NCBI RefSeq assembly: GCF_003790525.1
Contig: NZ_CP033632.1
Source: Escherichia coli
Lineage (GTDB): Bacteria; Pseudomonadota; Gammaproteobacteria; Enterobacterales; Enterobacteriaceae
Length of the DNA stretch: 64,000 nucleotides
Direction: 5' to 3' (one strand)
This document shows positions 26,501-29,500 of the stretch, in pieces. How positions within the stretch are numbered: the first letter of the stretch is position 1; every line of letters starts with the position of its first letter. A program made the position numbers.

Positions 26501-29500
26501 CGACGTATCCCCACTGTTCGTCCATTTCCGCGCAGACGATGACGTCACTGCCCGGCTGTATGCGCGAGGTTACCGACTGCGGCCTGAGTTTTTTAAATGG
26601 CGGAAAATCGTGTTGAGGCCAACGCCCATAATGCGGGCGGTTGCCCGGCATCCAACGCCATTCATGGCCATATCAATGATTTTCTGGTGCGTACCGGGTT
26701 GAGAAGCGGTGTAAGTGAACTGCAGTTGCCATGTTTTACGGCAGTGAGAGCAGAGATAGCGCTGATGTCCGGCGGTGCTTTTGCCGTTACGCACCACCCC
26801 GTCAGTAGCTGAACAGGAGGGACAGCTGATAGAAACAGAAGCCACTGGAGCACCTCAAAAACACCATCATACACTAAATCAGTAAGTTGGCAGCATCACC
26901 TGTTGTCTGATAGAAATATCAAGGTCATTGTCCACCAGCTTGGCACGACTGATCTCACCTCCGCAGCGGGTAAGCTTTTGTTGTCGATGCTGGCAGCAGT
27001 TGCAGAGATGGAGCGTGACCTGCTGATTGAGCGGACCCAGGCGGGGCTGTCACGAGCAAAAGCCGAAGGCAAGAAATTGGGCAGACCGTCGAAAATCGCG
27101 GCAGAAGCCCGTAGGGCGATTGTGGCGAAAAAGAATAACGGTGTGAGTGTCAGTGCGTTAGCGCGGGAATATGGTGTATCTAGGGCAACGATTACCGCTA
27201 TCTTTGATTAAGTAGTCTGGTTAAATACTCGCTTGGCAAGTTTGATAAACTAACGCTTTAAATTCTTGAGTTCTTTTCGCTGCCATGGCTTGATAAAACA
27301 TACCCTAGATAATTCGAGTTGCAGGAAGGCGGCGGGGGAGCTGATCCTCAAGAGCTTACTAAAGTTAAAGTAAGCGACGGGGTGAATGAAGTCAACGCGC
27401 CTGCGGCTTGAAATATGATTGGTATATCTTCAAGCTTTAAAAGCTAAGTGACTAAAAAGTTACACCGACTAGTTAAGTAAAATCACTCTTATGGAAATAT
27501 TAAAATGAAAAAAGCTCTTTTGGTTATTGTTACAGCAATTGTTTTATCTGGATGCGCAAGTTCAAGTGGTAAGCCCGTTGAGGTTGTTAACGCCGATCGT
27601 GCTGGTGGTGTAGTTACCATAGGCTATGTAAACTCTGAGAATCTACCTCTGATGGATGATGGCAGTAAAGCGCGATGGGGTGACGCTGTTGGTATTGCTA
27701 CTCGTGTGTGTAGCAAGTGGGGATACGAAAGTGCGGAAGAGCTAACTCCACATGCTCGCACTGAAGGGCAGCGTAACATGTATGGACAGCTTATGAATGG
27801 AAGCGTGACAAAGCAATATCAGTGTTTGGGTGGCAACGTTAAATAGTTACTACATAAAGCCATGCTTCAATCTGTTCAACTGAAGCATGGCTAGGTATGA
27901 ACCCGCGATGGGTTCGTTTGGCGTTGGTGATAAAGCCGCTCAGAAGCGTTTTGCCATGTTTTCCGAAGCGCTTGAGTATCTCCGTAGCATGGAGACAGCA
28001 AAATGGCGTAGGCCCAATGCCAGTGGCAACTGGGGTATTGTTTCGGCAGTGCGGTGGGGCAAACTGAGAAAGTGAAGTAAGTGTAAGTTTATAAATTCTG
28101 GATGCTGTATTAATGAACAGACCTCTTTGGCAAAAGATGAGACACCTATGAATCAGTCTTACTCTTCTATAAGAGTCGACAAAACATCAAAATCCAGGTG
28201 CGTTACGTAGGCGTTACAGTGGCATTTCACTTCGGCAATGGAGAGTGTTTTTGAAAAATAATCATTTAACATCATATGATTGGCTAAATGCGCTGAATAA
28301 TCTTGAATTGCTTTCACTTCATTCCGAAATTTTAACGCAGTTGCGTTCTAGAGGTGTCATTCGCACCAAGAATAATCCTGTTGGTGACTATGCTGAATGG
28401 CTGGTTTCTAATGCACTGGGTATGACTCTTCTCAGTAATTCGTCGGCGGGTGCTGATGCCATTGATGCTGATGGCCTGAAAGTGCAGATCAAAGCTAGGA
28501 GAGTTACGCCGGATAATCCTTCCCGGCAGCTTAGTGCCTTGCGTAACTATGAGGCAGCCGATTTTGATTATTTAATCGCGGTTATTTTCGATGAGACTTA
28601 CAACATTCTTGATGCTTACAAAATCCCACATGAAGTAATACGAGATTATGCACGGCATAGTGACCACGTTAACGCACATATCGTTAACCTCAAGGGCGCG
28701 ATTCTTACTGATCCCCGAGTTAGTTCCATCAAAGAAGACTTGATTGTCAGGAGTTCGGCTTCAGTCAATGAAGCGGCTATGCAAACCCTTCCACCCGAAC
28801 CTGTGGAAGAGGTTTTGAATCAACCAGAGAAGATAACGAGTAGTGTTACCCTGGTCAGCCTCCTTAAGGCTATTGGGATGGAGTGCTTCGTAAACTACTA
28901 CCATCATTTTGCCGATTCAAATTTACCAAGCGCTTATATCATTGAGCAAATGCACTCACGTGAGGGTTATACAGAGAAAAGTTGCCGGAGCCGTCTCAGT
29001 AAAGCGCGAAAAGTGATCAGGGAAGGTTTAAGTATTGAGGCTTTGGCGTTGATCGCTGACTCTGAGCGAATGCAAGATTCTGTCAGAAATGACGCGCTAA
29101 AACTTATCAGCGTTCTGGAGTGAAGCGGTTTGCAAAACGTTGTAGTGATCCTACCCACGTAATATGGACACAGGCCTAAGCGAGGTTCTGGTTTTCAAAT
29201 TGTTCCGGACTGAGGCCGCCACACCAACTGTGCCGCCGCCACCGATTGTAATCACATTCGATATAATTAAACACCGTTGCCCGCATTATTTCCCGGCTGA
29301 TAAAGTGTTCTCCATGGATACATTCCACTTTCAGCGAATGAAAGAAGCTTTCCACGCAGGCATTATCGTAGCAGCAACCTTTTGCGCTCATACTTCCACG
29401 CAGATTATGCCGCTTCAGTTGCGCCTGATAATCTGCTGAACAGTACTGGCCTCCACGGTCCGTGTGAACGATAACGTTCCGGGGCCTCTTACGCCGCCAC

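Follow-up and report, generated by a model that had tools for sequence, protein, structure and literature searches.

A stretch of 64,000 nucleotides from Escherichia coli (contig NZ_CP033632.1 of assembly GCF_003790525.1), hereafter the window, holds between a copy of the insertion sequence (IS) IS1 and an IS3 element an open reading frame (ORF) for a protein of 292 amino acids (aa), and the locus raises the question of what this protein does and which of its neighbours, if any, work with it. The original prediction, made from the sequence alone, described an orphan protein with a possible nuclease motif beside a resolvase remnant and a lipoprotein gene; a six-frame ORF list recovers all three ORFs where they had been placed. 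The 292-aa ORF is almost certainly the gene for Eco15I, a BisI-family (Type IIM/Type IV-like) modification-dependent restriction endonuclease.

Residues 9–181 of the ORF, which form the catalytic domain (Eco15I_Ntd, 28269–28787, + strand), are 100% identical to the ‘Restriction endonuclease (Eco15I)’ of PDB entries 8Q5M and 8Q5O (E = 6.3e-109, PDB sequence search), and the same residues are homologous to NhoI (8Q5N/8RPX, E = 1.3e-21). Full-length Eco15I as printed in the supplement of the 2024 NAR paper (MKNNHLTSYDW...ALKLISVLE; PMC11347163) agrees with the window ORF read from TTG 28251, evident machine-reading slips (letters dropped or doubled) being ignored in this comparison. The PADLOC model mREase_II (‘Type II methyl-directed restriction enzyme’) matches the protein at 1.8e-70, as do five more mREase_II models. 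Pfam gives DUF6998 alone (E = 6.4e-9), which explains the RefSeq name ‘DUF6998 domain-containing protein’, and an NCBIfam scan of the protein matched no family. The 292-aa protein shows all the hallmarks of the BisI family that are open to a check by sequence, and no evidence in our analysis contradicts the identification. The label of orphan is thereby withdrawn: the protein's biochemistry was reported in 2016 and crystals with DNA followed in 2024, and both gene and enzymology are already known, having been published for an identical protein. The annotation can be upgraded in this window and in ~100 E. coli genomes, from DUF or hypothetical protein to Eco15I, a restriction endonuclease of the BisI family that depends on 5-methylcytosine (m5C).

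The source of the published enzyme, E. coli 541-15 (GenBank EIL45146; PDB 8Q5M apo, 8Q5O with DNA), has the same protein with the same 290-aa two-domain architecture and the same neighbourhood of XRE regulator and IS1, the XRE regulator and IS1 genes next to eco15I having been noted by Xu et al. 2016 (PMC4926085). The window differs in that the regulator is cut to its last 54 codons, yecR lies upstream, and the start call at GTG 28245 adds two residues. A GGAGAG ribosome-binding site at 28240–28245 suits TTG 28251 better than GTG 28245, which favours the published 290-aa form as the actual product; the start codon is probably TTG 28251, giving eco15IR the coordinates 28251–29123 (+).

The N-terminal half had been proposed to adopt a restriction-endonuclease-like fold, and the solved structure of the identical sequence bears this out, with a PD-(D/E)xK fold of the PD-QxK subtype. 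The catalytic residues, read from the sequence in 292-aa numbering, are E51 (28395–28397), D71 (28455–28457), Q81 (28485–28487) and K83 (28491–28493), equivalent to E49, D69, Q79 and K81 in 290-aa numbering, the residues mutated in the published work, where the catalytic mutants E49A/D69A/Q79A/K81A of Eco15I are described (PMC11347163). The methyl-sensing dipeptide is H141-V142 (in ‘SDHVN’; H139/V140 in the paper's numbering), aligned by phmmer with ‘SQHV’ of NhoI. The pattern from which a nuclease was first suspected, GDYAE...GADAIDADG.LKVQIKAR, is present and marks the active site; it is no chance match, because residues 9–181 are identical to the crystallised N-terminal domain. The catalytic aspartate, however, is D71 of ‘GAD’ and neither Asp of ‘AIDADG’.

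The specificity and the dimeric mode of DNA recognition are those of the identical published enzyme. Eco15I was purified from E. coli 541-15 and is the largest among the 34 BisI homologues assayed (Xu et al. 2016, PMC4926085). It cleaves G5mCNG5mC bearing 3–4 methyl or hydroxymethyl groups (PMC4926085, PMC11347163), GCNGC with 3–4 m5C being cut better than with 2 and hemimethylated sites being cut poorly (PMC4926085); the substrates in published tests were pBRFM, XP12 and oligonucleotide duplexes (PMC4926085, PMC11347163). Structures of Eco15I_Ntd, apo and with tetra-methylated DNA, show PD-QxK domains joined in a homodimer that surrounds the duplex; bases are not flipped out for methyl sensing, and an (H/R)(V/I/T/M) dipeptide of the distal subunit reads the internal methyl groups (PMC11347163). 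On this basis the 173-residue N-terminal PD-QxK domain encoded in the window dimerises, encloses double-stranded DNA and reads GCNGC together with the methyls of up to four 5-methylcytosines. One methyl pocket combines the His-Val dipeptide of the distal subunit with an Arg from the proximal one, and main-chain contacts make up the other; Mg2+ is held by the E/D/Q/K residues, and the cut falls inside the site (G5mC^NGC) to leave 1-nt 5′ overhangs.

Comparison with named systems delimits what is particular to Eco15I. NhoI and BisI share the homologous PD-QxK domain, the E...D...QxK site, the HV methyl-sensing dipeptide, homodimerisation and cleavage within GCNGC, but are single-domain proteins of ~160–170 aa, whereas in Eco15I a further ~110 aa form a C-terminal domain; two m5C per site suffice for good cleavage by BisI, while Eco15I prefers 3–4 (PMC4926085). 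The canonical restriction enzyme closest in fold and dimerisation mode is PvuII (PMC11347163), which cuts unmodified CAGCTG to blunt ends and has a protective methyltransferase, whereas Eco15I needs methylated DNA and has no methyltransferase partner. The E. coli Type IV systems of the Mrr and McrBC type resemble it in role, the attack on modified foreign DNA, and Mrr also has a PD-QxK catalytic variant (PMC11347163). Eco15I differs from these systems in working without an NTPase partner, in recognising a defined 5-bp site inside which it cuts, and in detecting methyl groups with neither base flipping nor a separate reader domain. The enzyme family has already been published, with crystal structures, and explored commercially; that the gene occurs on plasmids and islands of E. 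coli is likewise already recorded.

The sole truly unexplained part of Eco15I is its C-terminal domain (Ctd), whose all-helical core of ~85–97 aa is encoded at 28830–29120 (+). In the published work BLAST returned orthologues only, and the authors left the domain as ‘function unknown’ (PMC11347163). An exhaustive phmmer search against 1.84 billion cluster representatives (clusters at 50% identity) gave 346 matches at E ≤ 1e-3, 28 of them at E ≤ 1e-10, spanning residues ~202–290; when the Ctd was used in a word-indexed homologue search, nothing beyond fragments and orthologues came back. The Ctd itself is covered by no Pfam or NCBIfam model. Most family members are standalone proteins of 90–100 aa; tandem duplications also occur, and among the listed matches about one in three is a fusion. 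The Ctd is a member of a widespread, unannotated family of ~85-aa, mostly basic helical domains, and this family exceeds, in size and in range of fusions, what the literature describes.

A Pfam scan of 44 fusion proteins identified as partners HNH_2 (3–4 members), HNH (2–3), UbiE-type methyltransferase (3), HEPN_Swt1 (2), NOV_C (2), BisI-like DUF6998 (1–2), and MIT_C (PLD-like), DUF4145, HigB toxin and HSDR_N (1 each), and the AFDB matches also include fusions with a recombinase, with Phd/YefM antitoxins, with DUF1413 and with HNH proteins. The effector kinds fused to the family include HNH, BisI-like and other PD-(D/E)xK nucleases, HEPN, PLD-like, HigB, Phd/YefM, serine recombinase and UbiE-type methyltransferase. 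Standalone Ctd genes lie in variable surroundings of mobile or defence-like character, with genes for the toxins PemK, HicAB and ParE and with HNH, TIR, CHAT, BREX, PIN, AAA_13 and SPL radical-SAM genes; no constant neighbour of the family appeared in the nine contexts sampled. One distant BisI-like+Ctd fusion adjoins an integrase gene and a Type I restriction–modification system. In our view the Ctd serves conflict-system effectors as a promiscuous accessory module, and the fusions provide a concrete set of proteins for probing its function.

An AlphaFold2 model of the Ctd, built from an alignment of 90 sequences, is a six- to seven-helix bundle with a predicted local distance difference test (pLDDT) score of 96.4 and a predicted template-modelling (pTM) score of 0.88. 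No solved protein is a significant relative, the best Foldseek match in the PDB having E = 0.53 and the best PDB-sequence profile match E = 0.28. Conserved positions comprise a glycine, a phenylalanine, a nearly invariant arginine in ‘SRxSxARxII’ and small or hydrophobic core residues. A first impression of a sigma-70 region 4-like motif (SRLSKARK) was unsupported by any search, and HTH_73 (PF24718), considered as an identity for the Ctd, matches a different region of one fusion protein (P0036).

What the domain does for the nuclease is where an alternative to an inert appendage has to be weighed. Our best guess, held with low confidence, is that the Ctd is a module common to many nuclease and toxin effectors and acts either as an adaptor or by binding nucleic acid; nucleic-acid binding and partner recruitment lead the candidate roles, although together they remain a tentative proposal. 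A stronger version, in which the Ctd is a functional DNA/RNA-binding helix-turn-helix (HTH)-like module that tethers the nuclease or controls it allosterically, in the manner of a Type IIE effector domain, is likewise doubtful. The published experiments speak against binding: Eco15I_Ctd showed no binding to the methylated target oligonucleotide by surface plasmon resonance, and removal of the 110-aa Ctd leaves both activity and sensitivity to the modification unchanged in vitro (PMC11347163). The authors also took its acidic isoelectric point (pI) of 5.6 as an argument against DNA binding (PMC11347163). The standalone members are basic, however, with a median pI of 9.5, and the Eco15I Ctd core without its acidic linker has a pI of 8.0, values that weaken the pI argument against nucleic-acid binding. 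Somewhat more speculative is the idea that the whole family, with at least 346 clusters and fusions to at least 10 effector kinds, could be a shared regulatory or targeting module of conflict systems, a sensor of nucleic acid or partner protein that gates many nucleases in vivo and has so far been invisible in vitro; we regard this as unlikely. As a separate observation, in four independent metagenome contigs (L005, 6001–7437, and L006–L008) 4 nt separate a standalone Ctd homologue (P0013) from the radical-SAM gene downstream of it, which is spore-photoproduct-lyase-like; this looks like an operon and would link the domain to a DNA-repair-type enzyme.

On this plasmid, the expected role of Eco15I is to destroy phage or plasmid DNA that enters the cell densely methylated or hydroxymethylated at cytosine. 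The original suggestion of a defence effector, drawn from a standalone nuclease on IS-ridden mobile DNA beside a serine-recombinase remnant, was right in kind; the mechanism it named, abortive infection, gives way to modification-dependent restriction of foreign DNA with m5C or 5-hydroxymethylcytosine. Neither between the flanking IS elements nor beside eco15I in the other arrangements inspected was a methyltransferase gene found, and eco15I is a solitary nuclease gene with no cognate protective methyltransferase. Host DNA would be spared. We infer that Dcm is unable to make an Eco15I substrate, because every cytosine of GCNGC follows a G, whereas Dcm (CCWGG) modifies a cytosine that follows a C. 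Plasmids that carry eco15I should resist DNA densely methylated at GpC or GCNGC, which bears on plasmid and phage host range and on cloning in such strains.

Three points temper the prediction of an active defence role in this setting. The two papers on the enzyme (PMC4926085, PMC11347163) report no in vivo phage restriction by Eco15I; a consensus promoter scan gave no convincing sigma-70 promoter upstream of eco15I; and the cognate XRE-HTH regulator is truncated here, so that expression could be altered or lost. The truncated gene, overlooked in the first reading of the sequence, lies between the lipoprotein gene and the nuclease gene (~27901–28075, +; RefSeq and alignment) and is a pseudogene in the RefSeq annotation, labelled ‘helix-turn-helix domain-containing protein, missing N-terminus’. 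It retains the last ~54 codons of a 154-aa regulator whose XRE HTH, at residues 8–63 of the intact protein (Pfam HTH_31/HTH_3), is gone in the window. The controller-type arrangement, with an intact XRE-HTH regulator immediately upstream of the nuclease gene, is absent from the window and present in other plasmids and chromosomes; the regulator may act as a controller of eco15I. As a general partner of the BisI family the HTH regulator was not seen beside two distant BisI-like+Ctd fusions. Pfam matches nothing in the regulator's C-terminal tail of ~50 aa (…FAEALEYLRSMETAKWRRPNASGNWGIV…); on the Marinobacter plasmid pMAQU02 a 246-aa ‘ASCH domain-containing protein’, encoded beside a RES-family toxin gene, ends in the same tail at 63% identity.

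The 175 bp upstream of eco15I (28076–28250, +) are retained and presumably hold its promoter and operator. Even the chromosomal locus of strain Santai, 91% identical, conserves the proximal ~70 bp, and within this stretch lies a direct repeat with an 11-bp period, GCGTTAC-N4-GCGTTAC (28200–28217, +). Placed ~35 bp before the start of eco15I, the repeat is a candidate site of action of the XRE regulator, as operator or promoter element. Expression of eco15I without the regulator is plausible. The main alternative is that the gene is intact but silent or deregulated, a decaying relic of a recombinase–HTH–eco15I island in which the regulator and upstream DNA were replaced by the yecR segment. It would account for the loss of all but 54 of the 154 regulator codons, HTH included, for the poor promoter consensus before the eco15I start, for the enclosure of the locus by IS1 and IS3, and for the frameshifted, split copies of eco15I in some E. 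coli chromosomes. We nevertheless consider it improbable, as the ORF is complete and encodes the very sequence of the active enzyme, the 175 bp upstream are kept with their conserved proximal 70 bp and ribosome-binding site, and the arrangement of yecR and truncated HTH gene persists at ≥99% identity in 26 genomes with intact eco15I. A functional gene, expressed from the retained upstream region, remains the reading we prefer.

The distribution of eco15I indicates how this arrangement arose. Of 5426 complete E. coli genomes 98 carry the gene, in 70 places on plasmids and 30 on chromosomes, and it is present at ≥99% identity in 74 E. coli records; the identical protein is encoded by 76 PLSDB plasmids. 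A phage origin found no support, with no DNA or protein match in 50,697 phage records, although a full-length PHROG family exists. An intact regulator stands upstream of eco15I in ~43 plasmids and in chromosomal islands; in pMRE162 and in the islands of strains Santai and PapM-32-1 the intact 154-aa regulator lies ~170 bp before eco15I. These islands also hold an intact serine recombinase as well as integrase, AIPR and DUF1643 genes. Comparison by BLAST and alignment revealed that 27901–29146 of the window is common to all eco15I arrangements, whereas the window bears no relation to the intact loci before 27901, where it carries yecR and a hairpin.

Further upstream, the recombinase remnant region (26902–27304) is 82% identical at the DNA level to the island recombinase that precedes HTH–eco15I, in the same orientation. 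Since the shared homology starts at 27901 and the remnant resembles the island recombinase, the window holds a rearranged remnant of a small mobile island of the order serine recombinase, XRE-HTH, eco15I. In the course of its rearrangement IS1 cut the recombinase gene, the yecR segment took the place of the regulator gene's first ~100 codons, and IS3 landed 23 bp past the eco15I stop (IS3 end at ~29146). In many of the 26 genomes with the yecR segment IS1 lies at another point, 27248. Some E. coli chromosomal islands (P0002; loci L027 and L028) carry eco15I frameshifted into a DUF6998 fragment and a 114-aa Ctd fragment, so the gene is decaying in part of the population; the apparently standalone Ctd proteins of E. 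coli (P0002) are such frameshift fragments of eco15I.

The copies of IS1 on either side of the segment, at 26148–26845 and at 30543–31240 (−), show a handful of residue differences in InsA and InsB (among them ASVSISC against ASISISC and LGWKS against LGRKS). Because of these residue differences they are no recent duplicates of each other, which argues against a simple IS1 composite transposon carrying the eco15I segment.

The lipoprotein gene (27505–27846, +) encodes 113 aa with a Pfam YecR domain (PF13992, E = 4.7e-8, residues 30–107) and a match to LPAM_1, and is annotated in RefSeq as yecR (WP_032666102.1). Its signal peptide contains the lipobox MKKALLVIVTAIVLSGC (LSGC with the lipobox Cys). 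It shares with E. coli YecR the YecR-like Pfam domain and a lipobox signal peptide, from which the window copy differs in being diverged and confined to plasmids: the yecR segment is found in 26 of the 5426 E. coli genomes, on plasmids only, and a megablast search gave no match of the segment to any E. coli chromosome. Directly 3′ of the yecR stop, a perfect 12-bp inverted repeat with an 11-nt loop (27858–27892, +; repeat search) can form a hairpin without a U-tract, at the junction where the HTH–eco15I homology begins. Because the homology shared by all eco15I loci starts at 27901, inside the truncated regulator gene, yecR is an unrelated passenger of eco15I that arrived by a secondary rearrangement. 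A two-gene defence or abortive-infection system, implied by the original prediction, with the lipoprotein as envelope sensor and the nuclease as cytoplasmic effector, is very unlikely indeed, for although the two genes lie on the same strand 400 bp apart and occur together at ~100% identity in ~26 plasmids, most eco15I loci (98 genomes, against 26 with the yecR segment) lack yecR and have an intact HTH gene in its place, the junction at 27901 falls inside a disrupted gene with the hairpin following yecR, Eco15I alone is fully active in vitro, and no PADLOC model matches the lipoprotein.

The remaining features of the interval begin at the end of the IS1 copy at 26900, where its terminal inverted repeat is readable in the sequence. 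Abutting it is the 3′ remnant of a serine recombinase (resolvase) gene, 102 codons long (26903–27211, +), labelled in RefSeq as ‘recombinase family protein, missing N-terminus’, whose NCBIfam serine-recombinase matches are confined to the C-terminal part of the models. Between this remnant and yecR lies a 125-nt imperfect palindrome (27298–27422, +), an ERIC/IRU-like dispersed intergenic repeat. Its match to the Rfam family V_AS5 is weak, at 28.6 bits where the gathering score is 96, and the z-score of its fold is −3.0. Copies of ~73% identity, under no annotated gene, are present in 5425 of the 5426 E. coli genomes at a median of 5 per genome, and this copy distribution identifies a dispersed ERIC-like repeat instead of a dedicated RNA; the element is no part of the nuclease system. 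The name ERIC is given by likeness to the consensus of that repeat. The ‘AS5’ RNA family of Vibrio may represent an element of this type.

The window as a whole is a mosaic E. coli plasmid, with 99.9% identity over 26 kb (about 25580–52028) to pS163-2.4 (NZ_CP058713.1). The annotation of that plasmid, mapped over to the window, places there a MobI(A/C)-like gene (24721–25206, +), three copies of IS1, IS3, IS421 and a Hok/Gef toxin, together with a cluster of MgtC, MFS, MBL-hydrolase and solute-binding genes, ParA/ParB and two RepB-type initiators. A GIY-YIG nuclease gene lies beside the partition genes.

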